The notes under the pieces: generated by a model | What the model saw: the letters and a program-made list of their open reading frames with translations, nothing else | The model's database searches: none | Told to the model about the DNA's origin: nothing | Translations under genes and position numbers: made by a program | Origin: Bacteroidales bacterium | Lineage (GTDB): Bacteria > Bacteroidota > Bacteroidia > Bacteroidales > JAAUTT01 | DNA length: 64,000 nucleotides | NCBI GenBank assembly: GCA_038213375.1 | Contig: JBBQTB010000001.1 | Span: 36,785-100,784, forward strand | Direction of reading: 5' to 3' | Part shown: positions 2,086 through 45,780 of the stretch, piece after piece | Layout of the letters: each line of letters starts with the position of its first letter | Numbering within the stretch: the first letter of the stretch is position 1

Positions 2086-2151
2086 CAAAATTGCGACCCT
2101 AAATTTTAACAATTATTACACAATCATTTAAATAACTTATATAATTTCCAC
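2086..2151 (-). promoter_or_regulatory. Stress-regulon promoter for glgX (tandem ATRTAA boxes plus -7 element)
   Basis: Minus strand reads GTGGAAATT-ATATAA-N15-GTGTAA-N22-CAATTTTG. Confidence 0.75.
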
Positions 2152-2198
2152 ACTTTTTCTCTTGTATCGTATGAGTAAAATTGAAAACCTTTAAAGTA

Positions 2199-2264
2199 GT
2201 GGAAATGATATAAATTATTTAAAATCAAGTGTAACATTTTACAATTGATAGCATACCACCTTTG
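2199..2264 (+). promoter_or_regulatory. Stress-regulon promoter for the DUF748 gene
   Basis: GTGGAAATG-ATATAA-N15-GTGTAA-N22-CACCTTTG. Confidence 0.75.
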
Positions 2265-2295
2265 TTATGATTTTCGATGCTCAATATCTGCGTAA

Positions 2296-4659
2296 ATGAC
2301 AAGATTTTTAAATACAAGGCTTAAAAAAGTTTCTTTTATTGTAATTGGATTCATAATCGTTACAGTAATAGTAGTTATTTTAATGCTGTCACCCATCACA
2401 AAATACTTGATTGAGAAGTATGATGTAAAATATACCGGAAGGCAAATTAAAACCGGTTTGGTTTATATAAATCCATTTACCGGTTATGTTTATCTTGGCA
2501 ATCTTAAAATTTACGAATCAAAAAGTGGACCCGATTCTACACAAAGGGATAGTGTTTTCTTTTCAGCAAAGGGGATAAGTATCAATTTATCGTTAACTAA
2601 ATTGTTCTCAAAAACAATAGAAATATCCGAATTCACATTAGATCAGCCAAATGGAATAATTATTCAAAACAAGAAGGATTTTAATTTTAATGATTTAGTT
2701 AAAAAATTCAGTTCCAAAAACTCAGTCCCGAAACAATCATCTTTTCATGTTAACATTCTTAATATAAAAATTAAAAATGGTGAATTCTATTATCATGAAA
2801 AAGAAATACCTATAAACTATTCTGTAAAAAATGTCAATTTTGAAAGTCCAGGCAAGTATTGGAACGCTGACACCATGGCTGTAAAATTTTCCTTCTTATC
2901 CGGAACGGGCAGCGGTAGTGTCAATGGCAATATTACAGTTGACCTTAAAAATCTTGATTATCAGCTTGCTATTGTCATTCAAAAGTTTGATATGAAAATT
3001 ATTGAACAATACCTCAAAGATTTAGCTAATTATGGTCACTTTAGTGCAAAATTGGATGCAAATATGCAATCAAAAGGTAATTTTAATGATGTAGAACGTG
3101 TTACAAATTCAGGTTTGTTGGAAATTAGCGATTTTCATTTCGGCAAAGATTCAGCTACGGATTATGCTTCGTTTGATAAACTTGCCATAGCCATTAATGA
3201 GCTTAGCCCACGGAAGCATATTTATTTTTACGATTCAATCTCGCTCAGTCATCCACATATAAAATATGAGCTTTATGATTATTTAGATAATTTTCAAAGG
3301 ATGTTTGGAAAAAAAGGAGCCAACATTTCGGCAGTTAAAGACGACCCTGCAAAATTCAATCTTATTCTTAAAATTGCTGATTATATTAAAACAATTGGCA
3401 AGAATTTTTTGAAGAGTGATTTCAAAATTAATCGACTGGCAATTTACAATGGTGTTTTAAAATTTAACGACTTCTCTCTGAATGAAAAATTTTCGATGGA
3501 AGCCAATCCTCTCAATATATTTGCCGATTCCATTGATAAGCATCGTAAACAGGTGGGGATAATGCTTAAATCCGGTATTCAACCATACGGAAATATTATG
3601 ATTGCTCTTAAAATAAATCCAAGAGACAGCAACGATTTCGACATACAATATCGACTTCAAAATTTACCCCTTTCTTTATTTAATCCCTACCTAATAACCT
3701 ATACGTCATTTCCGGTGGACAGGGGTAGCATAGAATTCAATGGTAATTGGAATGTGAGAAATGGAATGATAAAGAGCGATAACCACCTGTTAGTAATAGA
3801 CCCGCGTGTAGGTAGACGGTTAAAAAATAAATTTACAAAATGGATTCCCTTACGCCTTGTTATGCTTTTTGTTCGCGAACGTGGCAATGTTATTGATTAT
3901 CAAATTCCGGTAACCGGAAACTTAAAAGATCCCAAATTTCATTTGCATGATGTAATCTTTCATACGCTGAAAAACATTTTTGTTAAGCCAGTGGCAACGC
4001 CTTACATAGCGCGCGTGAAAACTACAGAAAATGAAATTGAGAAATCCCTCACTTTAAAATGGAAAATAAGACAAGCCACAATGGAGCGCAATCAGGAAAA
4101 GTTTACGAATAAAATGGCGGATTTTCTAAAAAATAACCATGATGCTTCTATTGTTGTTTATCCCATACAGTATGCCGAAAAAGAAAAAGAAAACATCCTG
4201 TTTTTTGAAGCGAAGAAAAAATATTTTTTGGTTTCCAACAAGATACAAACGATAAGTAAAGATGATTCCATAAAGGTGGATAAAATGTCAGTAAAGGATT
4301 CTCTATTTGTGAAGTATCTTAACAAACATCTTAAAGATTCGATGCTTTTTACCATTCAGGAAAAATGCGTTAAATTTATTGGTTCTGGTATTGTGAATGG
4401 TAAATTCAAACAATTAAACGACGAAAGAAAAGCCGCCTTTATTCTTCATTTTAAGAAAAAGGCTGTTGAAAATCGTGTAAAAATTCATACTGCTTTAAAT
4501 ACCATCCCATATAACGGATTTTCGTTTTTTAAAATAGATTACAATGGTGAATTTCCGAAATCCTTAATTAATGCTTATCAGCAAATGAATGAATTAAATA
4601 ATGAGGCTCCCAGAAAAGCGTTTAAAAAGGAGCGAGATAAAAATGAAAAAATTCTCTAA
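2296..4659 (+). CDS. DUF748 domain-containing (AsmA-like) envelope protein
   Basis: 787 aa with an N-terminal membrane anchor, INPFTG, a beta-rich body and an 'IPVTGNLKDPKF' motif typical of DUF748. Confidence 0.75.
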   Translation: MTRFLNTRLKKVSFIVIGFIIVTVIVVILMLSPITKYLIEKYDVKYTGRQIKTGLVYINPFTGYVYLGNLKIYESKSGPDSTQRDSVFFSAKGISINLSLTKLFSKTIEISEFTLDQPNGIIIQNKKDFNFNDLVKKFSSKNSVPKQSSFHVNILNIKIKNGEFYYHEKEIPINYSVKNVNFESPGKYWNADTMAVKFSFLSGTGSGSVNGNITVDLKNLDYQLAIVIQKFDMKIIEQYLKDLANYGHFSAKLDANMQSKGNFNDVERVTNSGLLEISDFHFGKDSATDYASFDKLAIAINELSPRKHIYFYDSISLSHPHIKYELYDYLDNFQRMFGKKGANISAVKDDPAKFNLILKIADYIKTIGKNFLKSDFKINRLAIYNGVLKFNDFSLNEKFSMEANPLNIFADSIDKHRKQVGIMLKSGIQPYGNIMIALKINPRDSNDFDIQYRLQNLPLSLFNPYLITYTSFPVDRGSIEFNGNWNVRNGMIKSDNHLLVIDPRVGRRLKNKFTKWIPLRLVMLFVRERGNVIDYQIPVTGNLKDPKFHLHDVIFHTLKNIFVKPVATPYIARVKTTENEIEKSLTLKWKIRQATMERNQEKFTNKMADFLKNNHDASIVVYPIQYAEKEKENILFFEAKKKYFLVSNKIQTISKDDSIKVDKMSVKDSLFVKYLNKHLKDSMLFTIQEKCVKFIGSGIVNGKFKQLNDERKAAFILHFKKKAVENRVKIHTALNTIPYNGFSFFKIDYNGEFPKSLINAYQQMNELNNEAPRKAFKKERDKNEKIL

Positions 4660-4749
4660 AAATTTTCATCTCCAAATCAATTGATTATTCCAAGTTAAAA
4701 TAATAAAACAATAGCCTAGATAAATCCTAAAGTAGCACAAGGCTACAAA

Positions 4750-4822
4750 TAATTTTTTTTAACAATTATTTCAGTCATTTTATTTATTTATTCATTACTG
4801 CATTCGTGGCGTGTTTTCCTTT
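4750..4822. repeat. Dispersed repeat (GCATTCGTGGC family), degenerate/half copy
   Basis: TTCAGTCATTTT...TGCATTCGTGGCGTGTTTT also occurs at about 44800-44850; the core matches the arms of the palindromes at 7856 and 48694. Confidence 0.65.
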
Positions 4823-4859
4823 ACTACAATTGAGGATTTTCAATTGTATTTCAATTGTA

Positions 4860-6647
4860 TTACGCCGGAAGAAAAACGGTAAAAGTAGCACCAATGCCGG
4901 GTTTACCATTTGCAGTAATATACCCATTGTGGTTTTCAACAATTTTTTTGCAAATTGATAGTCCGATGCCTGAACCAGGGTATTCTGTTTTATGAGGCAA
5001 CCGGTGAAACAGAATAAAAATGTCTTCGGCATATTGTTGGTCAAAACCCAATCCGTTATCCGTTATCGAAATTTTGAAATATATTTTATTATTATCTTTC
5101 TTAACAATCGGATAATCTTTGGCTGTAATTTTTATGCACTCAATATTTATTATCGGAAAAATATCTGGGTTGCAATATTTTAACGAATTGCCAATTAAGT
5201 TTGCAAATAATTGCTGAATTTGAAATGGAATCACTTCCAGAAAAGGCAACTGAGTAAATTGTATAACAGCATTTTTCTCTTCAATAGTGTGAGCTAATTC
5301 TTGTTTCACGTTTTCAAGTAAAAGATTACAATCGGTTTTCGCAAAAACCTTGTCGGTTTTATTGGTATGCGAAAATAAGAGCAAGTCGTCTATGAGTTTT
5401 CGCATGCGAATTGCAGATGCTATAATTTTTTCAAAATATTCTTTACCAGTTTCCGACAGGGTGAATGCTTCTTTTTCAGAAATACGCGAAATGAATGTCT
5501 GTATTTTTCGTAATGGTTCCTGTAAATCGTGACTTGCTACACGGTTAAAGGATTCTAATTCCTTAATAATTTGTTCTAATTCCTGATTTTTTTCTTCTAA
5601 TGCTTTAGTATTTAAATTGTATTCCGTAACATCTTTTATAACTCCAATATAAATTTTATTTTTTTTATTGAATGAAAGATATTTACCTAAGGATTTGAAA
5701 TAACGCAATTCTCCATCTTTGCGGATGATCCTGTATAAGCGAGGATATGTTTTATTAATTTTTACGTCTTCTGCTCCATTGGCTACAATACTCCTATCAT
5801 CAGGGTGTACAAATTTTAAATAATTTTCAATTGAAGGTTCAAACGATTGTGGTTCGTAACCTAATAAACGGTATAAGTTATCAGAATACAATAACTTATT
5901 GGTTTTTAAATCCCATTGAGAGATGCAAAATTCGCCAATAATTTCTGCATGTTTCATTGATTCTATCGATATCATTAATTGCTCATTTGATTGTGTTAAC
6001 ATAAATAAATCCGTGGTAATTTTGACATAAGAAATGATGAAAATCGCCAATGTAAAAAGCAAAAGCATTAACGTAAAAAGCGGGGTAAATGAAATTTCGT
6101 GTTTGTATTTTTTTTGATTTTGGTTAAAATGTTCCGTTTCCAAATCATTCATTTTTGAGATGAAGGAGCGTATCGAGTCCATTACCATTTTGCCTTTCAT
6201 CAAATTTTTATCTAACATCTTAGTATTTATAACTGGATTAGAATTTATTTCTAACGTTTTCTCCAATAGAGCATATCTATAATTGATTAAATGAAATAAT
6301 GTATCTAACTGCTTTTGTTGCTGTATATTTTCATTTAATAGAGTTTTTAAACCGTTGAATACCTGGTTTACCTTTTCGCGACCCGAATTATAAGGTTGAA
6401 GAAATAAAGTATCTTTTGAAATAATAAAGCCGCGTTGGCCTGTTTCTGCATCTTTAAGATAGGAGAGTAGTTTCTCTAAATGAATCTGAATTTTATATGA
6501 ATGAACTAATAAATCAGATGATTCACTAAGAGAAATAGTGTGCTTGTAAGATACACTTGAAATAAAAACTAATACAAACAATGCTATCACAAAAATACTC
6601 TTAAGTAAAAAAGGACTTTTGAAAATGAACATGCCTTTCATAAACAC
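4860..6647 (-). CDS. Sensor histidine kinase, CHASE3-PAS-HisKA-HATPase
   Basis: DAETGQRGF (CHASE3), VHPDD (PAS), SHDLQEPLRKI H-box, N box NLIGNSLKY, DNGLGF and GSGIGL G boxes. Confidence 0.93.
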   Translation of the reverse strand: MFMKGMFIFKSPFLLKSIFVIALFVLVFISSVSYKHTISLSESSDLLVHSYKIQIHLEKLLSYLKDAETGQRGFIISKDTLFLQPYNSGREKVNQVFNGLKTLLNENIQQQKQLDTLFHLINYRYALLEKTLEINSNPVINTKMLDKNLMKGKMVMDSIRSFISKMNDLETEHFNQNQKKYKHEISFTPLFTLMLLLFTLAIFIISYVKITTDLFMLTQSNEQLMISIESMKHAEIIGEFCISQWDLKTNKLLYSDNLYRLLGYEPQSFEPSIENYLKFVHPDDRSIVANGAEDVKINKTYPRLYRIIRKDGELRYFKSLGKYLSFNKKNKIYIGVIKDVTEYNLNTKALEEKNQELEQIIKELESFNRVASHDLQEPLRKIQTFISRISEKEAFTLSETGKEYFEKIIASAIRMRKLIDDLLLFSHTNKTDKVFAKTDCNLLLENVKQELAHTIEEKNAVIQFTQLPFLEVIPFQIQQLFANLIGNSLKYCNPDIFPIINIECIKITAKDYPIVKKDNNKIYFKISITDNGLGFDQQYAEDIFILFHRLPHKTEYPGSGIGLSICKKIVENHNGYITANGKPGIGATFTVFLPA

Positions 6648-6656
6648 GTTATTGAA

Positions 6657-7103
6657 TTAACGACTAAGTATAAATGTATCTTTGTTGAGACCAGATAAAT
6701 GGTATTGCCAATTAATAGCAACGACTTCTTGTAATATTTTTTTTAGAGCGCTAAAATCGCTTGGTTTTTTTATATAAACATTAGCCCCTTTAACAAACGT
6801 TTCCTCAATATCTTCTTCAGAAGCGGACGTCGAATAAATAGCAACCGGAATTTCCTTTAAAAAGTCGTTTCGTTTGATATCCAATAAACAATCCATACCA
6901 TTTTTACGAGGCATGTTTAGGTCAAGAAAAATAATATGAGGCAGAATCACGCCTTGTTTCGTAAGGTGTTCCATTAATTCTACCCCATCACATAAAGTTT
7001 TAACAATAGTCTTGATTTTTATTTCTTCAAAAGCTTCTTTAAAAAAAATTCTGTCATCCTCATCGTCATCGGCAATTAAAATTTGCATTATTCCGTTTTG
7101 CAT
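6657..7103 (-). CDS. Single-domain response regulator (receiver only)
   Basis: ILIADDD, FLDLNMP, STS and YIKKP motifs; no output domain. Confidence 0.93.
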   Translation of the reverse strand: MQNGIMQILIADDDEDDRIFFKEAFEEIKIKTIVKTLCDGVELMEHLTKQGVILPHIIFLDLNMPRKNGMDCLLDIKRNDFLKEIPVAIYSTSASEEDIEETFVKGANVYIKKPSDFSALKKILQEVVAINWQYHLSGLNKDTFILSR

Positions 7104-7124
7104 TGGTTTTATATATGTGGTTGG

Positions 7125-7685
7125 TTATTTCACGTCATCGGGTTTTCTTCTTTTATTAATAATTCGTTGGAAGGCAGTAGGAGTGAGCCCCGTTACATTC
7201 TTAAACTGATTGCTAAAATGGGCGAGGCTACTATAGTTTAATTTATCGGCAATTTCAGTAATGGTTAATTCATTAGAAATGATTAACTTTTTCGCACGCT
7301 CGGTCTTTTGAAGTGCTATGAAATTTTCGACTGTAGTATATGTAATATCTGAAAATAATTTAGAGATATAACCATACTTATAGTTAAGTTTATCAGCGAT
7401 ATACAAAGATATTTTTGAAATGGGTAATTTATCTTCCATATAAACCATTTCTGTTATCACATCTTTTATTTTTTGAACCAAAATACTTTTGTGACTTTCA
7501 ACAATTTCAATACCATAACTATTTAAGGTGATATTCAGTTGCTGTAAATTTTCGTTGGAAAAAGTTTCTTGTATTTCAACTTCGCCCAAAGACGATAGGG
7601 AATAGGTAAGGTTATATTTATCTAACTGTTCCTGAACTATTTTTTTACAAAGTGTGTGTGTGTCATATTTAAGGTAAAGCTTCAT
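7125..7685 (-). CDS. AraC-family transcriptional regulator
   Basis: C-terminal TITEIADKLNYSSLAHFSNQFKNVTGLTPTAF double-HTH signature and a short Cys-containing N-terminal domain. Confidence 0.92.
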   Translation of the reverse strand: MKLYLKYDTHTLCKKIVQEQLDKYNLTYSLSSLGEVEIQETFSNENLQQLNITLNSYGIEIVESHKSILVQKIKDVITEMVYMEDKLPISKISLYIADKLNYKYGYISKLFSDITYTTVENFIALQKTERAKKLIISNELTITEIADKLNYSSLAHFSNQFKNVTGLTPTAFQRIINKRRKPDDVK

Positions 7686-7855: not shown

Positions 7856-7904
7856 AATGAGCCACAAATGCACAAATAATTTATTTGTGCATTTGTGGCT
7901 CATT
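7856..7904. repeat. Perfect 24-bp inverted repeat (REP-like palindrome)
   Basis: AATGAGCCACAAATGCACAAATAA-T-TTATTTGTGCATTTGTGGCTCATT. Confidence 0.9.
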
Positions 7905-7980
7905 AACAATATGTTTATAAATCAGGTCTTAGTGTATTTGGTGACTTGTAAATTTTTATAATAAGCTCTCAAATTCCCAA

Positions 7981-8157
7981 TTACCCATTAATAATTGCGC
8001 CACAATTAATATGAATGAATTGACCCGTAATGCAACTGGTATCATTACTTACTATAAATAAACTTTTACCACCCTTTCCGGATTTTAAAGTATTCTCTTT
8101 AAATTCGTGCATCACTTTCTCAATTTTCTTCTAAGCTTTATCTGAATATTTTGACAT
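7981..8157 (-). pseudogene. Deletion scar: 5' part of a DUF6496-like gene fused to the 3' end of an SDR oxidoreductase
   Basis: Manual translation MSKYSDKA*KKIEKVMHEFKENTLKSGKGGK-SLFIVSNDTSCITGQFIHINCGAIING*; in-frame TAG at 8131-8133. Confidence 0.7.
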
Positions 8158-8205
8158 ATTGTAATTTTTATTACCAATTTATTTAAAAATTAACGCTATC
8201 CCGTA

Positions 8206-8373
8206 TCACTTTTTAAAAATTGTAAATCCAAGAATACCCGTTATAACCACCAAAACTAGAAAAGTGAAGAATATTATTTTAGCGATAGCAGCGGCTCCTT
8301 CAGCTATACCCGTAAAACCAAAGATTGCAGCTATTATAGCAATTACAAAGAAAATTACAGTCCATTTTAACAT
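8206..8373 (-). CDS. DUF1328 / UPF0391 small membrane protein (55 aa)
   Basis: Manual translation [36 protein letters not shown]...; below the ORF-track cutoff. Confidence 0.9.
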
Positions 8374-8425: not shown

Positions 8426-8491
8426 CAAAGTTAAACAAGAGCTGAAGAAATCGTATTACATTATTCCAAATTAAATTTATATAATTACCAT
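8426..8491 (-). promoter_or_regulatory. Stress-regulon promoter for the DUF1328 unit
   Basis: Minus strand reads ATGGTAATT-ATATAA-N15-ATGTAA-N22-TAACTTTG. Confidence 0.75.
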
Positions 8492-8740: not shown

Positions 8741-9202
8741 TTATGAAGTAGTTACAAGTGTATCGCGCATTGATTTAACTAAGTTGTGATCAGCTTTAAT
8801 TAACTCATATTGCGAGGTAATGAGCATTTTTAGTGGAGTATTCAAATCTTCAACATCATCTTTTAATGCTTTTTCATACGTTTTAAGCGCCTGATCTTCA
8901 CCAAATTCGCATAAGTTTAGAATGGTTTTACGATCTTTGCCAGTAAGGGCTGTTTTGACATCCATCCATACACGGAAAAATTTTCCAGTTGTTTTTGTAC
9001 TTTCCGTAGGTTTACCCCCTAATTTAATTATTTCACTTTCTAATTCGTTTTTGCATTTATTACTGGTTCTGGCAAATTGTGCAAAGAGTGTTTTCAACTC
9101 ATGTTCATCAGTTTCGCTGGAGGCTGTTACATAACCTTCAATTCTGTCGTTGTTTATTTCGACAAGTGTGTTTAACACATCAATTTTTTCTTCGTTTTTC
9201 AT
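8741..9202 (-). CDS. PA2169-family four-helix-bundle (DUF2383, ferritin-like) protein
   Basis: LNTLVEINNDRIEGY, GKFFRVWMDVK and CEFGEDQAL motifs. Confidence 0.88.
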   Translation of the reverse strand: MKNEEKIDVLNTLVEINNDRIEGYVTASSETDEHELKTLFAQFARTSNKCKNELESEIIKLGGKPTESTKTTGKFFRVWMDVKTALTGKDRKTILNLCEFGEDQALKTYEKALKDDVEDLNTPLKMLITSQYELIKADHNLVKSMRDTLVTTS

Positions 9203-9278: not shown

Positions 9279-9344
9279 TAAAGATATGCCTGCTTTGAAA
9301 TAAAATCATTATATATAAAACAGAAAATATTACATCATTTCCAT
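9279..9344 (-). promoter_or_regulatory. Stress-regulon promoter for the PA2169-family gene
   Basis: Minus strand reads ATGGAAATG-ATGTAA-N15-ATATAA-N22-TATCTTTA. Confidence 0.72.
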
Positions 9345-9382: not shown

Positions 9383-9836
9383 TCAATTAATTTCTTTGTT
9401 TATTTGAACAGAATATTCATTGGAAATTATTTTTTTACCTTGTACAATGTCATATATCTTAGTGAATTCGGCTCCAAAATTTAATATTATGGCAGAAAAA
9501 TACACCCAAGCCAGAATGAGAATAATCGAATCAACAGCTCCATAAACAGAAACCATACTATTACTTTTAAGATAAAGACCAATAGCAAATTTTCCAATCA
9601 TAAAGAAGGCAGTGAAGGCTGAACCAATAATGCCATCGCGAAGAGCGAAAGAAAATATAAAAAGGTATTTTGATGAAGTAAGTTAGTCAAACGTTTGCCA
9701 AGGATGTCAAGTAATGAATTTAAGATTTAGTTAGTGACTACATTACTGCGCCCAATTTGATGGCATTATCATCTATAAATCCATCAAAAGTCTCTTTAAA
9801 TAGATGATATCCAGTCTTTTTTAATGTTATTTTCAT
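9383..9836 (-). pseudogene. YihY/BrkB-family membrane protein, internally deleted
   Basis: N-terminal piece MKITLKKTGYHLFKETFDGFIDDNAIKLGAVM* from 9836 and C-terminal piece ...IGKFAIGLYL...WVYFSAIILNFGAEFTK; most of the central helices are missing. Confidence 0.8.
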
Positions 9837-9973: not shown

Positions 9974-10621
9974 CTATAATGAAACGCCTATAGTGGCCTG
10001 ATACCAAACATTTTTGTAACGAGGATTTGAAGATGTCCCATCTCCATTATTATTCGATATATCCCAACCGGCTCTTAAATTAAGTACAAAATGGCTTAGG
10101 TTAAACTGCACACCACCCAGGAAACATAAAATGTTTTTGCGAATGTTACTGTTATCAAAATCACTCTCTTGTTGTCCGCTCAGAATGGAATTCGAAAATA
10201 CATTCTTTTGCTTCATTAAATAAGAATATTGCGGGCCGGCCTGTAAGGTAAAAAATTCACTTGGTTTCAAGGAGAATAAAATAGGTATGTCTAAATAATT
10301 GGTCGTATGGGTAAATTCATAATTACTACCAAAAACGGAACCTTTTGCCATGAAGCCTTTTTGGGAAAATAATAATTCAGGTTGAATTCCAAAATATTTG
10401 CCGATAGGTATAGATAAAAATGCTCCTGCGGCCAAACCAATCTTACTACCTGCCTTATATTCCTGACCTTTTGTGTCATACACGTTCGATAAATTTACTC
10501 CTGCTTTCAACCCAAACTGAAGCTTCTCGCGATTGTCCAAAATATTATCTTGCGCGTTACTTTTATTTGCAATTAAGGCAACTACTGCAATCATTAAAAT
10601 TATTTTTTTCATGATTATCAT
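9974..10621 (-). CDS. Outer-membrane beta-barrel (PorT-like porin family) protein
   Basis: Signal peptide, FGLKAGVNLSN, IQPELLFSQKG, YLDIP and AGPQYSYL. Confidence 0.85.
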   Translation of the reverse strand: MIIMKKIILMIAVVALIANKSNAQDNILDNREKLQFGLKAGVNLSNVYDTKGQEYKAGSKIGLAAGAFLSIPIGKYFGIQPELLFSQKGFMAKGSVFGSNYEFTHTTNYLDIPILFSLKPSEFFTLQAGPQYSYLMKQKNVFSNSILSGQQESDFDNSNIRKNILCFLGGVQFNLSHFVLNLRAGWDISNNNGDGTSSNPRYKNVWYQATIGVSL

Positions 10622-10713
10622 ATTAAGTTATTTAGGTATTAATTTTAGAATTTTTCACATCTTCTTAAAGTGTCATTTAACAAATTGGTTGTTAAACGGC
10701 TTTTGAAAACAGG

Positions 10714-10902
10714 TTATTTAAGCCCTGCAATCATCTTATCAAATTCATCCTTAGATGTTCCCAGCTTTGTTTGAATTTTTCCAAGCATCTCATCTTCTTT
10801 ACCTTCTTCATACATAAGGTCATTATCAGTTAAAACTGCAAATCTCTGTTTGAGTTTACCTTTTAACTCATTCCAGTTACCTTTTACTATTGATGTGTTC
10901 AT
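10714..10902 (-). CDS. CsbD-family general stress protein
   Basis: KGNWNELKGKLKQRFAVLTDNDL...GKIQTKLG. Confidence 0.92.
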   Translation of the reverse strand: MNTSIVKGNWNELKGKLKQRFAVLTDNDLMYEEGKEDEMLGKIQTKLGTSKDEFDKMIAGLK

Positions 10903-10943
10903 TTTTAGAAATTTTAAATGGTGAATAAAAGTTATTAATTTAT

Positions 10944-11417
10944 TTATACTTTGCCTTTAATTTTGATAATGCTATTTTTATTTTTGGATGAAAAAGCTTT
11001 TAAATCGAAACCCAGTTCATCCATATTTTGTTTAAACTCTTTTTTGAATGATTCCCATTTTAGCATGTCATTATCCATTTTATAATTTGCCATTTTCTTT
11101 TTAAGATCTTTGTTTCTGTTTACTAACACACTTATCTCTTTATTGAATGCAGCATCCTCCTTTTCATTTACTTTCACATATTTTGTTTTCAACTCTGCCA
11201 TTTTTTTTTCATTTTTGATAATTTTTTTTTCAAAGTCAATTTTAAATTGATGGTATTCCGATAAATATTCATCTGGATTTTCCATGGGTTGTTTTGCATC
11301 AGCTAACTCTTTGTGCAAATTTTCTTTGGATTTAAGAATATCTTTTTGCTGTCCGTAGGAGGTGGTAACTCCCATCAAAATTGCAATTATAGTTGTTGTT
11401 ATAATGTTTTTTTTCAT
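10944..11417 (-). CDS. Secreted coiled-coil hypothetical protein
   Basis: Signal peptide and a KWESFKKEF-type helical repeat. Confidence 0.7.
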   Translation of the reverse strand: MKKNIITTTIIAILMGVTTSYGQQKDILKSKENLHKELADAKQPMENPDEYLSEYHQFKIDFEKKIIKNEKKMAELKTKYVKVNEKEDAAFNKEISVLVNRNKDLKKKMANYKMDNDMLKWESFKKEFKQNMDELGFDLKAFSSKNKNSIIKIKGKV

Positions 11418-11453: not shown

Positions 11454-11519
11454 CAAAGTTGCAAATCATTATGTCGATAACTATTACATGAATTTCGAAT
11501 TATTTTACATCATTTCCAC
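11454..11519 (-). promoter_or_regulatory. Stress-regulon promoter for the hypothetical-CsbD-porin unit
   Basis: Minus strand reads GTGGAAATG-ATGTAA-N15-ATGTAA-N22-CAACTTTG. Confidence 0.78.
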
Positions 11520-15474: not shown

Positions 15475-15587
15475 AAATTCTATTTTCTAAAAGATTACTT
15501 CATTTATTTTTTCAAAGTCTACATTTTATTTTTTATGAAGTGTAAGGTATTTACCCGATATATAGTAATGTAGTTTTAAATTATACC

Positions 15588-15622
15588 AGGTCTGTTCCGA
15601 AATTTTTATTCGGAACAGACCT
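15588..15622 (-). terminator. Perfect 14-bp stem-loop after the YtxH gene
   Basis: AGGTCTGTTCCGAA-N7-TTCGGAACAGACCT. Confidence 0.65.
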
Positions 15623-15629
15623 AAATTGT

Positions 15630-15926
15630 TTAAACACTTTGTGAAGCATAAGATCTGGCATTTTTTACATCTTTTTTTACTTCTTCAGATTTAGCTTCAG
15701 CTTTTTCCGCAAACTCAGATACATCTTCCTTTGCTGAATCGTATTTTTCAGAGATATTGTCTACAAACTCGTTGAATTTTTCCTTTAAGGCATCAACGTA
15801 GTCATCTCCCTTTTTTAATACTTTTTTACGGGTGTCCGAACCTTTTTCCGGAGCAAATAAAATACCTATTAATGCACCTGCGGCCAAGCCAGCAAAAATG
15901 CCTACTAATACATTACCTGTTTTCAT
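15630..15926 (-). CDS. YtxH domain general stress protein
   Basis: GLAAGALIGILFAPEKGSDTRKK. Confidence 0.92.
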   Translation of the reverse strand: MKTGNVLVGIFAGLAAGALIGILFAPEKGSDTRKKVLKKGDDYVDALKEKFNEFVDNISEKYDSAKEDVSEFAEKAEAKSEEVKKDVKNARSYASQSV

Positions 15927-15961
15927 GTTTTGATTTTTTTAAATGATTAAATACTAAATTA

Positions 15962-16117
15962 TTACGCAATTCTATTGCCCTGTATAATTCTAATAAGAAT
16001 TGAAATTACTGCAATTACAAGCAGTATGTGAATAATTGAACCTGCACTATATGCAAAAAACCCGATAGCCCAAAAGATGACTAAAATGACTGCAATTACA
16101 TAAAGAAGATTTCCCAT
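15962..16117 (-). CDS. lmo0937-family (DUF5670) small membrane protein (51 aa)
   Basis: Manual translation MGNLLYVIAVILVIFWAIGFFAYSAGSIIHILLVIAVISILIRIIQGNRIA. Confidence 0.9.
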   Translation of the reverse strand: MGNLLYVIAVILVIFWAIGFFAYSAGSIIHILLVIAVISILIRIIQGNRIA

Positions 16118-16189
16118 GGTATTAATTTTAAAATTATTAATAAATTGATTTACTAGTGTTTATATCTACTGTGGGGGGTAGTATATTGT

Positions 16190-16765
16190 TTACATTTTTT
16201 CGCATTTCTTTTGACACGTAATTGCACGATCAAGATGTTTCCGCAAGATCGGTAGTGTTTCCGCTGCCCAGGTTCTAATATCTATATCATTCGCGTCCTT
16301 GGATGCTTTTTCAAATGTTGCAATCGCATCTTTATGTCCGCTTACCATCATATCACAGTATTCCTTATCAAATTTTTTTCCTGTTTTCTTACTCAAATCC
16401 TTATAAACATTCTTTACCTTATCGGTAGGTGATGTTGGAATGGTTATTAGTTTCTTCTTTGCCAAAGCAATTAAGTTTTTCATTGATTCACTGTGAGATT
16501 TTTCTATCATTATGCCCATTTCTTTAACATCAGTCATCTGACTGTTTTGCTGAGCTAATTGTCCTAAAAGAGATTCTTTCCAATTAATCTCTGCAGCATC
16601 CACAAGAAATTGGGCATCTTGTTTTTGATTATCTGTATTATCAAATTTGGCATCGTTGTGTTCCTCAGCTACAGCTTTAGTGTCAGCCGGTTTTTGGGAA
16701 CTATTACATGACCATATGCTAAAAATGGCTGCAATTAAAATAACACTTAAAGTTTTATTTTTCAT
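16190..16765 (-). CDS. DUF4142 domain lipoprotein
   Basis: Lipobox WSC, FDKEYCDMMVSGH and TLPILRKHL. Confidence 0.88.
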   Translation of the reverse strand: MKNKTLSVILIAAIFSIWSCNSSQKPADTKAVAEEHNDAKFDNTDNQKQDAQFLVDAAEINWKESLLGQLAQQNSQMTDVKEMGIMIEKSHSESMKNLIALAKKKLITIPTSPTDKVKNVYKDLSKKTGKKFDKEYCDMMVSGHKDAIATFEKASKDANDIDIRTWAAETLPILRKHLDRAITCQKKCEKM

Positions 16766-16794: not shown

Positions 16795-16861
16795 CAAATT
16801 TATGCTTGCTTTTATCTCAAAGCATTACATCATATACATAAAAATGTTACATGATTCCCAT
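16795..16861 (-). promoter_or_regulatory. Stress-regulon promoter for the DUF4142-lmo0937-YtxH operon
   Basis: Minus strand reads ATGGGAATC-ATGTAA-N16-ATGTAA-N22-TAAATTTG. Confidence 0.78.
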
Positions 16862-16900: not shown

Positions 16901-16937
16901 GTGGAAATGATGTAAAATATAGTGCAACATGGTGTAA
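16901..16937 (+). promoter_or_regulatory. Orphan copy of the regulon boxes lacking the -7 element
   Basis: GTGGAAATG-ATGTAA-N16-GTGTAA, but no TAnnTTTG 22 nt downstream. Confidence 0.6.
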
Positions 16938-40278: not shown

Positions 40279-40368
40279 TTCAGATAATACGGTTTTTTAG
40301 GATATTGATTTTAATAAATTTATAAGAATTACTTTACAAAAAAGTTTTGTAAAAACAACAAAATATAA

Positions 40369-40586: not shown

Positions 40587-40685
40587 TGGGTAAGCTACTT
40601 ACATCGCACCGCTCAACCGTCTACCCTTGCTTCCTTCCGAACCTGGGGGAGTTCAACAGGAGCTGGTCGTATAAGACTTACCCGA
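40587..40685 (-). ncRNA. ffs: SRP RNA (4.5S)
   Basis: Long hairpin closed by GGGTAAG/CTTACCC with the CAGG-TTC-GGAA-GGA-AGCA domain IV motif; TACTTTTG -7 promoter just upstream. Confidence 0.92.
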
Positions 40686-40796
40686 CGCAAAAGTATAAAT
40701 AATTTTGTAATCACAACAACGAAAACTAATCATTTTTACAACAGTCACGTAAAAAAACTGATATATTTGTGCAAACCTTTTTAAAACTATTTTTTT

Positions 40797-41342
40797 ATGG
40801 AAAACAATAATCCACACTTTCTGAAAAGCACAATGACTTATGGAGCTATACTTGGTATATCAATGGTGGTTTATAATATAATTTTGTATATAGTAAACTT
40901 ATCCCTAAATAAACCTTTAAGTTATATTGGTTACATAATCATTATTGGAGGTATTTATTTGTCAATAAAATCATTCCGTGACCAAAGCGAACAAAAAGCT
41001 ATTACATATGGCAGAGCTGTGGGCGTAGGCGTATTAACTGTAGTATTCTCTTCCATAATCGTTGCTTTTTACACTTACATTCTTAATACATATATTGATA
41101 CCGGTTTAATCCAAAAAATTTTGGATATGACAAGGGAGCAATATGCAACAAAGGGAATGTCTGACGAGCAGATAGACACTGCCATCAATATGAGCAGTAA
41201 GTTCATTACTCCTGGGTTTATAAGTTTTTTTGTAATTCTTGGATCTGCATTTATGGGTACTATTTTTTCATTGATTATCGCAGCCTTTTTGAAAAAAGAA
41301 CCTAGTATTTTCGAGTCTTCTGAAAATACATTACAATCATAA
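40797..41342 (+). CDS. DUF4199 family membrane protein
   Basis: Four TM helices, ITYGRAVGVG and SLIIAAFLKKE. Confidence 0.82.
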   Translation: MENNNPHFLKSTMTYGAILGISMVVYNIILYIVNLSLNKPLSYIGYIIIIGGIYLSIKSFRDQSEQKAITYGRAVGVGVLTVVFSSIIVAFYTYILNTYIDTGLIQKILDMTREQYATKGMSDEQIDTAINMSSKFITPGFISFFVILGSAFMGTIFSLIIAAFLKKEPSIFESSENTLQS

Positions 41343-41359
41343 ATAAACATTTTTAGTAG

Positions 41360-42307
41360 ATGGACATTTCTTTAGTAATCCCTCTCTTTAACGAAGAGGA
41401 ATCTTTGCCAGAGCTGGCTAGTTGGATCGATCGTGTAATGCAGGAAAACGGTTTTAGATACGAAATTTGTTTTATTGACGATGGTAGCTCCGACAGCTCC
41501 TGGCAAGTAATTGAAAATCTCAGCCTCACAAACCGAAACATACACGGAATTCATCTTCGACGTAATTACGGAAAATCGGCTGCCTTGCATTGCGGTTTCA
41601 ATATTGCAAAAGGCGATGTTGTTATTACTATGGATGCCGATTTACAGGACAGCCCCGACGAAATACCCGAACTTTACCGGATGATTAAGTTCGAGAAATT
41701 CGATCTGGTATCGGGATGGAAGAAAAAAAGGTTCGATCCCATCTCCAAAACGCTCCCTACAAAACTATACAATGGCACTCTTCGTGCAATGAGTGGTATA
41801 AAGTTACACGACTTTAACTGTGGATTGAAAGCCTATCGCAATGAAGTGGTAAAATGTGTGGAAGTGTATGGTGAAATGCACCGTTATATTCCATACATGG
41901 CAAAAAAAGCCGGCTTTTATAAGATCGGTGAAAAAGTAGTGCAACACCAAAAAAGAAAATATGGTGTTACAAAATTTGGTCTGGAACGTTTTATAAACGG
42001 TCCGCTCGACTTGTTAAGTATTATGTACATTCAGAAATTCGGAAAACGACCTATGCATATTTTCGGATCGCTCGGCACCCTTATGTTTATGGTTGGATTG
42101 TGTGCCTCTCTTTACCTCGGAATTCATAAATTATATTGTATGAGTTTACATATAAAAGCAGGGCTTGTTACCGATAGTGCATACTTTTATATTGCTTTAA
42201 CTACCATGGTTTTAGGTACACAGTTGTTTCTTGCGGGCTTTTTGGGAGAACTGATTTCACGAAGTTCTTCGGAGCGAAATAATTACCTGATTGATAAGGA
42301 ATTCTAA
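41360..42307 (+). CDS. Glycosyltransferase family 2 (ArnC/GtrB-like)
   Basis: DDGSSD, RNYGK, MDADLQD and DFNCGLKAY, plus C-terminal TMs. Confidence 0.92.
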   Translation: MDISLVIPLFNEEESLPELASWIDRVMQENGFRYEICFIDDGSSDSSWQVIENLSLTNRNIHGIHLRRNYGKSAALHCGFNIAKGDVVITMDADLQDSPDEIPELYRMIKFEKFDLVSGWKKKRFDPISKTLPTKLYNGTLRAMSGIKLHDFNCGLKAYRNEVVKCVEVYGEMHRYIPYMAKKAGFYKIGEKVVQHQKRKYGVTKFGLERFINGPLDLLSIMYIQKFGKRPMHIFGSLGTLMFMVGLCASLYLGIHKLYCMSLHIKAGLVTDSAYFYIALTTMVLGTQLFLAGFLGELISRSSSERNNYLIDKEF

Positions 42308-42316
42308 TGTAAAAAC

Positions 42317-43459
42317 TTAATAACCACTTAATTCCAGCTTGTTAGTTTGTATCAGGGTGATTCGCTTGCCCATCTTTTTTTGAATTACAACAAAATGATG
42401 AACCTCTTCGGGACTTATCAACGAAATAGCGTCACCGGACGACTCGGCGCGACCTGTTCGTCCTATCCGATGCACGTAATCCTTGGGTGAGCGTGGTAAT
42501 TCGTAGTTAATTACATATGGCAGAAACTGAATATCAATACCTCTTGATGCCAGATCAGTAGCTACCAACACTCTTAATTTGCCGGTTTTAAATTTTTGCA
42601 ATGCCTGAGTCCTTGCTCCCTGACTTTTCAAACTATGCATAGCCGAAGCTTCGATGCCATTAATATTTAGTTTAGTTGTAACATGGTCAGCTGTTTTTTT
42701 TGAGGACACAAATACCAACACCTGATTCATGTTCTCATGCTTGATTAGGTAGCGCAATAGGGGTCCTTTTCGTTCGGTCTCCACATGATAGGCTATTTGT
42801 GTAATCAAATCGATATTCTTACTTTCTGCCTTTATTTCAATTACTACCGGATTGCGAAGAAGAACCTCCCGGAAAGCATTCATGTCGGTTCCAAGCGTTG
42901 CCGAGAAAAGAATATTCTGGCGTTTTTTGGGTAATAGAGCGAAAATTTGGTCCATCTCATCACGGAATCCCAGATTCAACAATTTATCCGCTTCATCCAA
43001 AACAAGCGTTTCAACTTCCGAAATATTCACAGCATTAGACGCAATTAAATCGAGCAATCGTCCGGTTGTTGCCACTAAAATTTCGGTACCCTGCAATTGC
43101 ATCATTTGAGGATTGATAGAAACCCCACCATAAACCGCCATTGTTTTTATCCTATTCGGTAACGCTGAACCAAATAATTGAAAAACTTCTGCCGTTTGAA
43201 TTGCCAATTCTCTGGTGGGAACAAGAACCAGTGTTTTAACATGCCTGTTTTTAGATAGTTTTTTATTTTGAGAAAGTTCCAATATGGGCAAAACAAAACT
43301 TGCCGTTTTCCCCGAGCCAGTTGGAGCAATTCCCAGAACATCCTTACCATTTAATATAGCCGGTATTGCTTCTTTTTGAATGGGATAAGGCATAGCGTAA
43401 TGTTGTTCAGCAATTACATTTAAAAGAGTCGCTGACAAACCAAGTGATGAAAACGGCAT
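42317..43459 (-). CDS. DEAD-box RNA helicase (RhlE-like)
   Basis: GSGKT, PTRELA, DEAD, SAT and HRIGRTGR. Confidence 0.93.
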   Translation of the reverse strand: MPFSSLGLSATLLNVIAEQHYAMPYPIQKEAIPAILNGKDVLGIAPTGSGKTASFVLPILELSQNKKLSKNRHVKTLVLVPTRELAIQTAEVFQLFGSALPNRIKTMAVYGGVSINPQMMQLQGTEILVATTGRLLDLIASNAVNISEVETLVLDEADKLLNLGFRDEMDQIFALLPKKRQNILFSATLGTDMNAFREVLLRNPVVIEIKAESKNIDLITQIAYHVETERKGPLLRYLIKHENMNQVLVFVSSKKTADHVTTKLNINGIEASAMHSLKSQGARTQALQKFKTGKLRVLVATDLASRGIDIQFLPYVINYELPRSPKDYVHRIGRTGRAESSGDAISLISPEEVHHFVVIQKKMGKRITLIQTNKLELSGY

Positions 43460-43753
43460 ATGATCGGGTAATAAATGAATAAAATAAATACTTTAAGGCA
43501 CAAACATACTACTAATTAAATTAACGATCGGTGACACAATAAGGCTCTTACCCCTAATTAATAAAGGTGAATTTTGTGCTTTTCTAAATTTCAGATTTTT
43601 TCTTTAAAAATGTATCAACCAGTTCCTTTTTGGAATTCAGGGTAAAACAGGTTGGTTTTTCGAATGTGTCAAGTAGATTTAAACAATAGAAGAAATTTTG
43701 TGTTAAAGAAGATATTTAAGATATTATATTTAGAATTTGGATTTGTTGGTTAG

Positions 43754-43787
43754 AAAAGGCAACGTCGTGAGATGTCGCCTTTTTTTT
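43754..43787 (+). terminator. Intrinsic terminator with no upstream + strand CDS
   Basis: AAAAGGCAACGTC-GTGA-GATGTCGCC followed by a T8 tract. Confidence 0.65.
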
Positions 43788-43992
43788 ACACAATATGATA
43801 TCAGTAATAGAAAGATGAAAGATGAAAGATTTTTGCGGTACACTGCAAGTGAATATTAGCATTGGCCTTGCCTATACACACATTCAATAAGATCACTCAT
43901 TTTAAAGTTTTTTAGCTTTTTTTAACAAATCCGCACACAAGAAAACTCATATTTCCACGTCTTATATTAAGTAAAACCTATTACTTAAAATT

Positions 43993-44238
43993 ATGAACCC
44001 AACAAACATGTTAGAGCTTCAAAAACTCGTATTGGAAAAGGTGTATGAAAATAAATTTTTATTTGTTAAAGAACTTCAAAAATCATTTCTATGGCTCAAT
44101 CAAGAGGATTTATACATACTTTATAACTGGGCTATCGGAAAATTCAACGCTCGGTACCGGAATATAATTAACTGCGTGTATTTGGGTTTTGACTTTCAGA
44201 AATCAATGACCACAGGTGCACTGGCTCCGGCTTACTAG
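43993..44238 (+). CDS. Small hypothetical protein
   Basis: MLE.QK.VLEKV...LF.KEL.KS..WL pattern and a good initiation context. Confidence 0.7.
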   Translation: MNPTNMLELQKLVLEKVYENKFLFVKELQKSFLWLNQEDLYILYNWAIGKFNARYRNIINCVYLGFDFQKSMTTGALAPAY

Positions 44239-44307
44239 GTAGTATTTAAATCAATGTAATAAATTTAAAATTGATTAAATGGAGTTTATGTGGTAAAACT
44301 GAGTAGC

Positions 44308-44754
44308 CTATCTTATGCCAGTATCAATGCTGATTTCAACTTGTAAAGTATTTCCCTGTTTGATTGTAATAGGAAAAGGCAAATTACTACCTCCAAATCG
44401 ATTGTTATTTTTTACATCAAAATCAATCACATACTCACCGATTGGAAGATCAATTTGATATGTACCATCCAAATTAGGATTAATAACAACTATCCTCGAC
44501 TTTTCATCTTTCGACCAGATAGCAGTTGCCCAATTCTTATATGTTTCTTTTGTGGGTTGGCATGCAGGGGATGGCGGGTCTGTTTCTACTGGACAAATTG
44601 GACCGATTGATATTTTGCCCTTTAATATACCCTTCATATTTAACTTATTAGCATCAACATCAATTGACTTGTCCTTACAACCAGCCAATAATACTAATAT
44701 TACTACCATTGCCAAGAAATATTTTACGATTCGATGATGTTTGTTTTCGATCAT
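44308..44754 (-). CDS. Hypothetical lipoprotein
   Basis: Lipobox LAGC, GPICPVE and C-terminal IDTGIR. Confidence 0.75.
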   Translation of the reverse strand: MIENKHHRIVKYFLAMVVILVLLAGCKDKSIDVDANKLNMKGILKGKISIGPICPVETDPPSPACQPTKETYKNWATAIWSKDEKSRIVVINPNLDGTYQIDLPIGEYVIDFDVKNNNRFGGSNLPFPITIKQGNTLQVEISIDTGIR

Positions 44755-44779
44755 TTGATTTTTTTAGTTGCTTATTTTT

Positions 44780-44850
44780 AAACTTTTTAACCTATTTAAT
44801 TCAGTCATTTTTTATTTATGCATTCGTGCAATCGTGGCGTGTTTTACTTT
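44780..44850. repeat. Dispersed repeat (GCATTCGTGGC family), half copy
   Basis: TTCAGTCATTTTTT...ATTCGTGCAATCGTGGCGTGTTTT, similar to 4750-4822. Confidence 0.65.
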
Positions 44851-44988
44851 GCTTCTTTGGCCTCATACAAATCTAGTTACTCTTTCGGGGTTGGGTGATG
44901 TTTTTAAATGGATTTGTGAATTATACAAGTTAGATGCTAAATTTAACAATTAGTTGCGTAAAATCTTCAAAAATTTATTTTCAATAGG

Positions 44989-45054
44989 GTGGAAATCATG
45001 CAACACTTTGCGGTTGAGATGTAACATTTTTTGATATTAAAGGTACCACCTTTG
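44989..45054 (+). promoter_or_regulatory. Stress-regulon promoter for the lipoprotein gene
   Basis: GTGGAAATC-ATGCAA-N15-ATGTAA-N22-CACCTTTG. Confidence 0.75.
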
Positions 45055-45134
45055 TATTACACGAGACTTTTGCCATTGATATGGTAAATGTTTCAATGAG
45101 AATCTTATATAAATTTAACCCTAAAAAAAACAAA

Positions 45135-45563
45135 ATGAAAGCAATTAAATTGAAATCTATGACAAAAAATATCTTTATAGGTATTTTTGTATCATTAATG
45201 ATGGTTTTTTTCACATCATGTGCCACAAAGATGGTTTTTTTGGATTCACCCGTTGTTCCGGGAGCAAAAGGTAATGTATCGATAAAAAATGACAAAAACA
45301 AAAATTACACTATTCAAATAGAAATCTCATATCTGGCTGAAATCGAAAAACTGCAACCACCTAAGAATACCTATGTTGTTTGGTTGGTTACAAAGCAAGA
45401 ATCAGCGAAAAATATAGGTCGAATTACAAGTTCAAAAAAATTAAAAGCATCATTTAAGACAGTATCTTCAGTTAAACCAACCAAAATATTTATTACGGCC
45501 GAAAATGACGGAAATATTCAATATCCAGGTACAATGGTTGTATTATCCACATCCAAAAATTAA
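45135..45563 (+). CDS. Hypothetical lipoprotein
   Basis: Lipobox FTSC, YVVWL and IFITAE; start chosen at ATG 45135. Confidence 0.75.
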   Translation: MKAIKLKSMTKNIFIGIFVSLMMVFFTSCATKMVFLDSPVVPGAKGNVSIKNDKNKNYTIQIEISYLAEIEKLQPPKNTYVVWLVTKQESAKNIGRITSSKKLKASFKTVSSVKPTKIFITAENDGNIQYPGTMVVLSTSKN

Positions 45564-45713
45564 AAGTAATATTTTTATACCAACATGGTGTTTGATGGGC
45601 AGTTGATTCCTGTTTTTTTAATAATGATTATATCATTTCAGGAATCACGCCTACCCGTTGTTTAGTTTTTGATTTTTTCCCGGTGTAAAATTCCACTAAT
45701 TTTTCTAAACTAT

Positions 45714-45780
45714 GTGGAAATCATGTAATATTTTTCTATAAATCATATAATAATTTTATATGTCAGCCTCTATAATTTTG
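45714..45780 (+). promoter_or_regulatory. Stress-regulon promoter for the Mn-catalase operon
   Basis: GTGGAAATC-ATGTAA-N16-ATATAA-N22-TAATTTTG. Confidence 0.78.

Follow-up and report, generated by a model that had tools for sequence, protein, structure and literature searches.

Eight transcription units in a 64,000-nucleotide (nt) stretch of the genome of a Bacteroidales bacterium (assembly GCA_038213375.1; the whole stretch is called the window here) are preceded by a tandem-box promoter element. This element belongs to a motif class that is spread across the phylum Bacteroidota, is built with rigid spacing, precedes recurring families of stress-type genes and is linked to genes for a family of small AraC-type proteins. 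The eight sites lie at the coordinates and on the strands given in the initial annotation of the window (Table 1), and all fit the pattern RTGGDAATB-ATRYAA-N15/16-RTRTAA-N22-YAnnTTTR, in which a distal box and a proximal box are followed by a -7 box of the Bacteroidota type. We are highly confident that they represent a class of promoters dependent on a transcription factor, and a 186-residue AraC-family protein encoded in the window, P0001, is our candidate for that factor. The initial annotation treated the eight sites as the regulon itself. They prove to be the form taken at genus level by a far larger class of motifs found across the phylum, and the regulon is confined neither to eight sites nor to the window.

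The assembly that holds the window comprises 4,946,269 base pairs (bp) on 73 contigs. The full pattern, with both boxes and the -7 box, matches eight times genome-wide, every time inside the window; when the -7 box is not required a ninth match appears, site 9 of Table 1. A tenth site, which starts with CTGG and has a -7 box at 22 nt, lies on contig C42. A three-block matrix trained on the original eight sites and applied with a cut-off of 25 bits, the scan proposed in the initial annotation, found 25 positions in this genome, the eight training sites and 17 others. Leave-one-out runs regained each omitted site at rank 6-24 among ~9.9 million positions. The boxes are AT-rich and the genome has 37% G+C, so chance similarity in AT-rich intergenic DNA has to be considered, but we find it hardly credible. 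Equal numbers of hits in shuffled DNA, named in the initial annotation as evidence against its own regulon proposal, were not seen: six shuffled genomes (three second-order Markov and three local 60-nt shuffles) gave 0, 0, 0, 1, 0 and 0 matches above the cut-off against the 25 real ones. A reversed-pattern control gave 0 matches in 41 relatives and in 401 phylum genomes, all eight sites have a co-directional start codon 26-76 nt 3' of the -7 box, and the architecture is conserved across Bacteroidota orders.

Mean pairwise identity among the eight sites is 0.83 for the distal box, 0.86 for the proximal box and 0.75 for the -7 box. The bulk of both spacers, described earlier as mostly unrelated, is at 0.30-0.31, compared with a random expectation of 0.27. 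As spacer identity is at the random level the sites are not copies of one element, and the other form of the chance explanation, small mobile-repeat copies, was rejected on the same ground. Identity is 0.52-0.53 in the first 7-8 nt 3' of each box, and the boxes therefore run on, at their 3' side, into T-rich tails. None of the sites is overlapped by an Rfam family, and no further site was found between the two site groups, where the annotated part (17-28 kb and 38-45 kb) carries ordinary genes and the signal recognition particle RNA. A scan for Escherichia coli-type promoters gave 94 matches against a shuffle mean of 90.5, indicating that this consensus is uninformative for the phylum. Overall, the evidence supports the sites as real promoter-like units ahead of stress-type genes.

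The window sites are the local GTGGAAAT dialect of a wider sister motif class of the form GTGTGAATnATGTAA-N15-RTGTAAY-N22-nAnnTTTG. The matrix scan located ~20 more sites of the sister form in this genome, some in other parts of contig C1 and the rest distributed over ten further contigs. The 47 open reading frames (ORFs) downstream of them include three for CsbD, one each for Dps/ferritin and DnaJ/CbpA-like proteins, two for OmpA and two for ice-binding-like proteins, together with parts of a Mla-type transporter, a KaiC-like protein, a thiamine pyrophosphate (TPP) enzyme, a phosphorylase and a CheR/CheB/methyl-accepting chemotaxis protein set. One sister site precedes a gene for a small membrane protein and then an AraC paralogue. 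Two of these genes, both outside the window, may be located more closely: the KaiC-like gene at C31:66425-66742, which lies behind a sister-class site, is truncated where the contig ends, and another such site precedes a CheR-like gene at C8:133384-134094.

An exact scan for the sister pattern in one genome per prokaryote species gave at least 119 stretches; among the 80 listed, every one that carries a taxon name belongs to the Bacteroidota. These include Bacteroidales (Prolixibacteraceae, Paludibacter and Rikenellaceae), Chitinophagaceae, Saprospiraceae, Flavobacteriaceae and genera of the Cytophagales. The counts of hits, sites and loci below refer to 119 such stretches. The spacer between the boxes is 15 nt in all 140 hits. 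The -7 box was not part of the query, yet in 110 of the 140 hits a distance of exactly 22 nt separates nAnnTTTR from the proximal TAA, with 21 nt in 6 more, and this independently confirms the rigid 22-nt distance described for the window. The consensus of the 138 unique sites reads AATGTGTGAATgATGTAAcTtTT ... AATTGTGTAACActt, then ~16 unconserved bases and ttAcCTTTG, which amounts to a direct repeat of 12-bp units spaced with a 21-bp period and, in addition, a block on the distal side.

The first downstream ORF was scanned for 126 of the 140 hits, the other 14 having none within 350 nt. OmpA (9), CsbD (8), Ice_binding (7), DUF5670 (6) and Gly-zipper (6) lead the tally, followed by HTH_18 and DUF748 (4 each) and DUF4142 and YtxH (3 each); the sister motif thus precedes the same gene families as the window sites. 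Seven orthologous sites are kept in a relative (G003), with changed spacers and one shift of the spacer length from 16 to 15. The GTGGAAAT dialect was found in 32 metagenome stretches, 17 of which have the -7 box at exactly 22 nt. Among 401 genomes sampled from the phylum, the strict two-box pattern occurs in 13 and a looser one in 16, with a union of 22. The genome of the window has 18 strict two-box matches and every other sampled genome has at most 6. The genus of the window seems to have expanded the system.

One report gives TAnnTTTG as the conserved -7 box of Flavobacterium and Bacteroides (PMC7641319), and another places the flavobacterial box at -12 to -5 (PMC9723704). Across the present genome TANNTTTG is over-represented at 20-60 nt ahead of start codons, with 253 occurrences in the 20-39-nt bin compared with ~45 in distant bins, and generic promoters show a weak TTG peak 19-20 nt upstream of the -7 box. 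Inspection by eye found no TTG at this spacing, in the first positions after the proximal box, in any of the eight sites, which accordingly lack the -33 feature of the standard Bacteroidota promoter. This is as expected if the promoters are read as activator-dependent. The initial annotation had proposed an activator bound beside the -33 region; the layout of the sites, with the -7 box placed at -12 to -5, fits an activator at ~-70 to -35 and an AraC-type candidate has been found, so that this part of the proposal stands, while the binding itself stays a prediction. Conversely, the boxes might be repressor operators that occlude the -33/-40 region, the genes being de-repressed under stress, and the proximal box does cover the upstream contact position of RNA polymerase. 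We regard repression as very unlikely, in that promoters without TTG at 19-20 nt look intrinsically weak, the rigid 22-nt distance suggests contact between protein and polymerase over mere occlusion, and AraC-family proteins whose sites reach as far as ~-35 typically act as activators.

The choice of sigma factor is less straightforward. Four of the eight -7 boxes start with CA, as the initial annotation had stated, and the other four with TA; one box ends in A. More generally, the free positions of the regulon -7 boxes are CC or AC in ~60% of cases, compared with 55 of 612 (9%) generic boxes, and only 60 of the 140 hits have T as their first base. Both observations weigh against an ordinary primary-sigma promoter and could point to another sigma factor. 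Two RpoD-like sigma factors, of 286 and 287 amino acids (aa), are encoded 8 kb apart outside the window (C41:12220-13080(+) and C41:20569-21432(+)), and both exceed the Sigma70_r3 cut-off. With two RpoD-like paralogues and with regulon -7 boxes unlike the generic ones, the phrase "without an alternative sigma factor" in the initial annotation is unsupported as written. A Pfam scan of 47 window ORFs, covering the stretches up to ~28 kb and from ~38 to 48.3 kb, found no sigma gene.

The second RpoD-like paralogue might then be an RpoS-like stress sigma that prefers nA(A/C)CTTTG, with the upstream boxes as auxiliary elements. The distinct -7 boxes are in keeping with this, as is the presence of two RpoD-like sigmas here and in four of the five motif-positive genomes tested. 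However, the putative regions 2.4 and 4.2 of the two paralogues read as nearly identical, so that no different box preference is evident; the fifth genome (G345) has three strict sites and only one such sigma; and the rigidly spaced, strongly conserved boxes at -70 to -35 would be left unexplained. The flavobacterial study lists one primary sigma for Flavobacterium psychrophilum and -7 variants among its promoters (PMC9723704). All in all we think a dedicated stress sigma quite unlikely. Two other promoter types were discarded by eye: for an extracytoplasmic function (ECF) sigma factor the 21 nt that separate the -7 box from the proximal GTAAY are too many, and the distal box does not fit the GG-N10-GC consensus of sigma-54.

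A candidate reader of the boxes emerged from the genes around them. When the ORFs with 55 aa or more were clustered across all 119 motif loci, P0001-like AraC proteins of 180-190 aa formed the largest cluster, present in 22 of the loci, followed by a 299-aa HisKA-HATPase kinase (20), OmpA/Gly-zipper proteins (19), CsbD (18) and cupins (17); a stand-alone receiver occurs in 8. No other DNA-binding family was seen among the top 30 clusters, as judged from the first 70 residues and from Pfam searches with 10 representatives. Genomes carry 1-8 genes of the AraC family, with five paralogues in the present one, and the chance of meeting one such gene in an 8-kb stretch is by simple arithmetic ~1%. 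In these loci a site often follows the AraC stop codon at a distance of ~16 nt. Of 15 loci around homologues in relatives, 8 have the motif immediately ahead of the AraC gene, and box variants in the same position were recognised by eye in two more (L006 and L010). In another locus (L015, G015:C2) tandem ~24-nt units resembling TATTTATAGTGCC replace the two-box motif ~150-420 nt upstream of an AraC paralogue. The AraC family is present in 21 of the 22 motif-positive genomes and in 201 of the 401 overall, figures that do not make a formal test as the genomes are mutually related.

P0001 itself matches Pfam HTH_18 (1.7e-15; 57.5 bits, cut-off 33.6) and HTH_AraC (4.9e-11), and it has the two helix-turn-helix motifs within a ~100-aa C-terminal domain that define the AraC/XylS family. 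The Protein Data Bank (PDB) sequences matched by this domain are AraC-type domains, the best being those of regulators of the YesN type (6swi and 3lsg). An alignment of the family separates two subfamilies, A (P0001-like), opening MKLYIKYD..C, and B, opening MKLYIKNMVCxRC. The opening of subfamily B contains an HMA-like CxxC (NMVCxRC) in some members and SxxC in others, and the P0001 subfamily retains the second Cys only. The CxxC could possibly provide a redox or metal input for regulators that have no kinase partner. Support for an HMA-like fold was looked for in several ways: Pfam HMA matched 3 of 16 AraC N-terminal domains with a best E-value of 0.15, below the cut-off, a PDB profile search with the N-terminal domain gave nothing meaningful, and one Atlas neighbour cluster was automatically named HMA with a score of 0.89, which we treat as a lead only. 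Alignment to the MarA helices suggests that the two subfamilies share their second recognition helix and differ in the first.

Taken together, these associations make it probable that this family of small AraC proteins reads the motif. Whether P0001 reads the sites of the window is an evenly balanced question, with several observations weighing against it or against the family as a whole. The strict motif (13 of 401 genomes, 22 with the looser pattern) is far rarer than the AraC family (201 of 401), and therefore most members must have diverged or unknown sites. The operon of P0001 has its own plain -7 box behind a terminator-like strong hairpin (7857-7903(-)) and carries no tandem boxes, so the autoregulation seen elsewhere is missing in the window. 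Site 9 has no -7 box at 22 nt, and the proximal box contains little information past 7 bp. The box variants do not follow the AraC subfamilies cleanly either: a genome with TGGGAAT sites (G012) has a homologue only 45% identical to P0001, metagenome loci L158 and L188 combine GTGGAAAT sites with homologues only 36-43% identical, and orthologous AraC-receiver-kinase operons of other genera lie near ATGTGAAT or ATTGAAT boxes. The idea that GTGG goes with the P0001 subfamily and GTGT with the other was dropped on these grounds. Proximity favours P0001 weakly, nine of the ten GTGGAAAT sites being no more than 45 kb away from it.

Regulators of the LytTR and OmpR types also use direct repeats ~21 bp apart beside the -35 region. 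Another DNA-binding protein, for example a response regulator of one of these types, might read the boxes, with the AraC genes being members of the regulon. The link between AraC and motif is one of guilt by association only, kinase and receiver are likewise enriched near the motif, and both the box-free AraC operon of the window and the box variants that do not track the AraC subfamily would fit. Against such a reader, AraC proteins make up the largest cluster with no second DNA-binding family in the 30 largest (within the limits of the partial residues and Pfam searches given above), the enriched receiver has no output domain, the two conserved blocks of the distal site lie about one helical turn apart and suit an AraC domain with two helix-turn-helix motifs, and the motif is within ~16 nt of AraC genes in many of the 119 loci. 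We consider it unlikely that the reader is a protein of another family.

P0001 is the product of a minus-strand operon between sites 2 and 3 that also encodes a receiver protein and a sensor kinase. Pfam identifies CHASE3, PAS_3, HisKA and HATPase_c in the kinase and Response_reg in the receiver, the composition of a two-component system. Members of the P0001 subfamily in other genera share 50-63% identity, and in their orthologous loci the receiver gene adjoins the AraC gene in 10 of 10 cases, and the kinase gene is present in 8 of 10. Metagenome loci L175 and L177 likewise have this operon of three genes next to GTGGAAAT sites. A DDD...FLDLNMP...K pattern is kept in 9 of 11 aligned receivers, and the Asp of the FLDLNMP block is taken to be the phospho-acceptor. 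In the two kinase-less loci, L141 (G309) and L143 (G249), this block reads FINYMIP and FMNHNLP, the Asp being replaced. That the receiver contacts the AraC N-terminal domain directly is speculation.

From these features we infer the binder, activation in preference to repression, the sigma factor used and the inducer, and can suggest how the system may work. Each site would be an activator-dependent promoter, read as one for the Bacteroidota primary-type sigma, with the -7 box (nAnnTTTG) standing in for a -10 element. The proximal box (RTRTAAY with its T-rich tail) would lie at ~-40 to -35, where the -33 element is missing, and the information-rich distal site at ~-70 to -56, in which GTGGA, replaced by GTGTG in the sister class, is separated from ATGTAAY by roughly one helical turn. 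As the ATGTAA-type boxes are 21-22 bp apart, both would be presented on the same face of the helix. One AraC protomer is envisaged on each box, the proximal one replacing the missing -33 contact. The co-operonic CHASE3-PAS kinase would govern the activity of P0001 via the receiver protein, perhaps by way of the P0001 N-terminal domain. This arrangement, class-II-type AraC activation of promoters without a -33 element by a small AraC protein under two-component control, is the mechanism we favour, if with some reserve; the class-II reading follows from the match of the geometry to that of AraC at I1-I2.

The output would be a protective set comprising trehalose synthesis, Mn catalase, ferritin-like bundles of the DUF892, PA2169 and DUF4142 families, CsbD, YtxH and small membrane proteins, and the genes behind sister sites (Dps, DnaJ/CbpA-like proteins, further CsbD and OmpA) may add up to a general-stress-like regulon. 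Gene content alone leads us to suggest a multi-stress response, for which we see an even chance. A wider scenario can be put forward tentatively, and we would not yet give it the better half of the odds: many Bacteroidota, in at least four orders, might run a general stress or dormancy response through a dedicated family of small AraC activators with HMA-like N-terminal domains and no alternative sigma, some using CxxC and others a receiver and CHASE3 kinase, all docking at a rigid two-box site in place of the -33 contact of primary-sigma promoters, the genus of the window having expanded the system to ~35 promoters, two dialects and five paralogues.

Table 1. Tandem-box sites and associated genes in the window (positions count from its first nucleotide)
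Feature	Position	Strand	Description
Site 1	2086..2151	-	Two boxes and CAATTTTG -7 box; predicted promoter of glgX-treZ-treY
Site 2	2199..2264	+	Divergent from site 1; predicted promoter of AsmA/DUF748 gene
Site 3	8426..8491	-	Predicted promoter of DUF1328 gene
Site 4	9279..9344	-	Predicted promoter of PA2169/DUF2383 four-helix-bundle gene
Site 5	11454..11519	-	Predicted promoter of 157-aa unknown gene, CsbD and outer-membrane protein (OMP) beta-barrel genes
Site 6	16795..16861	-	16-nt spacer; predicted promoter of DUF4142-DUF5670-YtxH
Site 9	16901..16937	+	Absent from the initial annotation; two boxes, divergent from site 6; upstream of DUF6702 gene; conserved in G003
Site 7	44989..45054	+	Predicted promoter of 160-aa gene without family match
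Site 8	45714..45780	+	16-nt spacer; predicted promoter of small ORFs, Mn catalase, DUF892/YciF and iron permease genes
glgX	1..2049	-	Cut by window edge; first gene of glgX-treZ-treY
AsmA/DUF748 envelope protein	2296..4659	+	
Sensor histidine kinase	4860..6647	-	CHASE3-PAS-HisKA-HATPase (Pfam)
Stand-alone receiver-domain protein	6657..7103	-	Pfam, alignment
P0001	7125..7685	-	186-aa AraC-family protein, candidate activator; ~80-aa N-terminal domain and HTH_18
DUF1328 small membrane protein	8206..8373	-	
PA2169-family four-helix-bundle protein	8741..9202	-	Pfam, NCBIfam
157-aa unknown gene, CsbD, OMP beta-barrel	9974..11417	-	CsbD 10714-10902; OMP beta-barrel 9974-10621
DUF4142, DUF5670, YtxH genes	15630..16765	-	
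160-aa protein	45081..45563	+	No Pfam or NCBIfam match
58-aa membrane ORF, Mn catalase, DUF892/YciF, low-affinity iron permease	45972..48265	+	Mn catalase 46171-47097; DUF892/YciF 47148-47711; iron permease 47783-48265

Pfam and NCBIfam searches agree with the families assigned to the downstream genes in the initial annotation. GlgX, TreZ and TreY all exceed their NCBIfam cut-offs, treZ and treY lying beyond the window start, and by these assignments glgX-treZ-treY is an operon for making trehalose from glycogen. The 58-aa ORF that follows site 8 has orthologues after GTGGAAAT sites in metagenome loci L173 and L176. Directly after YtxH there is a perfect 14-16-bp hairpin (15586-15624, both strands), likely a bidirectional terminator that splits the minus-strand row of genes below site 6; given this strong hairpin, the AI-2E, ankyrin and NDH-2 genes further down may be a separate unit. 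Between the DUF1328 gene and the terminator ahead of the AraC operon, at ~7950-8160(-), runs a reading frame interrupted by TAG at codon 9. It begins like a 58-61-aa gene (MAKYSKKS...) found after GTGGAAAT sites in L175 and L184 and its end resembles the C-terminus of a short-chain dehydrogenase, so that it is probably a gene remnant. A 72-aa ORF at 9383-9601(-) covers only the last 50 of 259 positions in the BrkB model and is probably a truncated gene that ends the site-5 unit. Elsewhere in the window, an Acido-Lenti-1 RNA match (59962-60006(-)) scores 41.7 bits against a gathering score of 37, and a single ORF of 3464 aa occupies 49102-59496(+).

To our knowledge no general stress response has been described for the Bacteroidota, and we know of no equivalent of RpoS or SigB in the phylum. 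Its members are abundant in soil, water and gut, and genetic tools for them are scarce. A literature search, with subscription journals and supplements outside its reach, found neither the motif nor this AraC subfamily described, and no account of an AraC-run general stress regulon in Bacteroidota, and the box sequence searched as a text string matched primers only. The promoter tables of the flavobacterial study might hold related sites (PMC9723704). As far as we could find, therefore, the widely conserved cis-element and its candidate regulator family are undescribed, and fall within the known compass of AraC-type activation. They bear on how Bacteroidota coordinate protection against drying, osmotic and oxidative stress, and they offer three testable pieces, namely a cis-element of fixed geometry, a candidate regulator family (in 201 of 401 genomes) and a kinase-receiver signalling module. 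With the motif, stress regulons can be predicted in Bacteroidota that have not been cultured, and it could serve as an inducible promoter part for the phylum.

Several known systems share parts of this arrangement. In stress gene content the nearest are those controlled by SigB in Bacillus, RpoS in E. coli and EcfG-NepR-PhyR in Alphaproteobacteria, whose regulons include the CsbD, YtxH, Dps, catalase, YciF/DUF892, trehalose-synthesis and CbpA-like DnaJ families found here. As in the PhyR systems, input is presumed to pass through a kinase and a receiver protein. In contrast to all three, what the promoters share is a site for a transcription factor ahead of a -7 box of the primary type, and no dedicated alternative sigma is evident. 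The presumed two-component control of an AraC-type output is reminiscent of YesN-type regulators, but in YesN the two parts are fused, whereas here receiver and AraC protein are separate polypeptides of one operon and the AraC N-terminal domain is not a receiver.

Among promoter-proximal repeats, the LytTR regulators AgrA and ComE recognise 9-bp direct repeats with a 12-bp spacer beside the -35 region. Our sites have the same 21-22-bp periodicity and the same position beside the promoter; they differ in their longer distal site of ~16 bp, and no LytTR-like cluster is apparent among the top ORF clusters of the 119 motif loci. MarA, SoxS and Rob of enterobacteria resemble the proposed system in being of the AraC type, in governing a dispersed protective regulon and in using asymmetric ~20-bp sites at fixed distances from the promoter. 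These proteins, however, are monomers that bind a single marbox, whereas the element described here has two boxes and its candidate reader an extra N-terminal domain. The gene content is also different and there is no close sequence relationship, the matches of the P0001 helix-turn-helix domain to SoxS and MarA in NCBIfam and PDB being weak and far below the cut-offs.

The closest parallel is with the class-II activators of the AraC/XylS family, which include AraC at the I1-I2 sites of araBAD, RhaS, MelR and XylS. At I1-I2, AraC occupies a strong distal site and a weak proximal site that ends at ~-35. The element described here similarly has half-site direct repeats ~21 bp apart, strong distal and weak proximal, and is predicted to be bound by a protein with a C-terminal double helix-turn-helix domain. 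P0001 departs from AraC in its size of ~186 aa, with an N-terminal domain of ~80 aa that has no established family and no cupin sugar-binding domain, and its presumed input is a kinase and a separate receiver in place of a small ligand. The promoters, unlike araBAD, are of the Bacteroidota -7 type and hold the proximal box at a rigid 22-nt distance.

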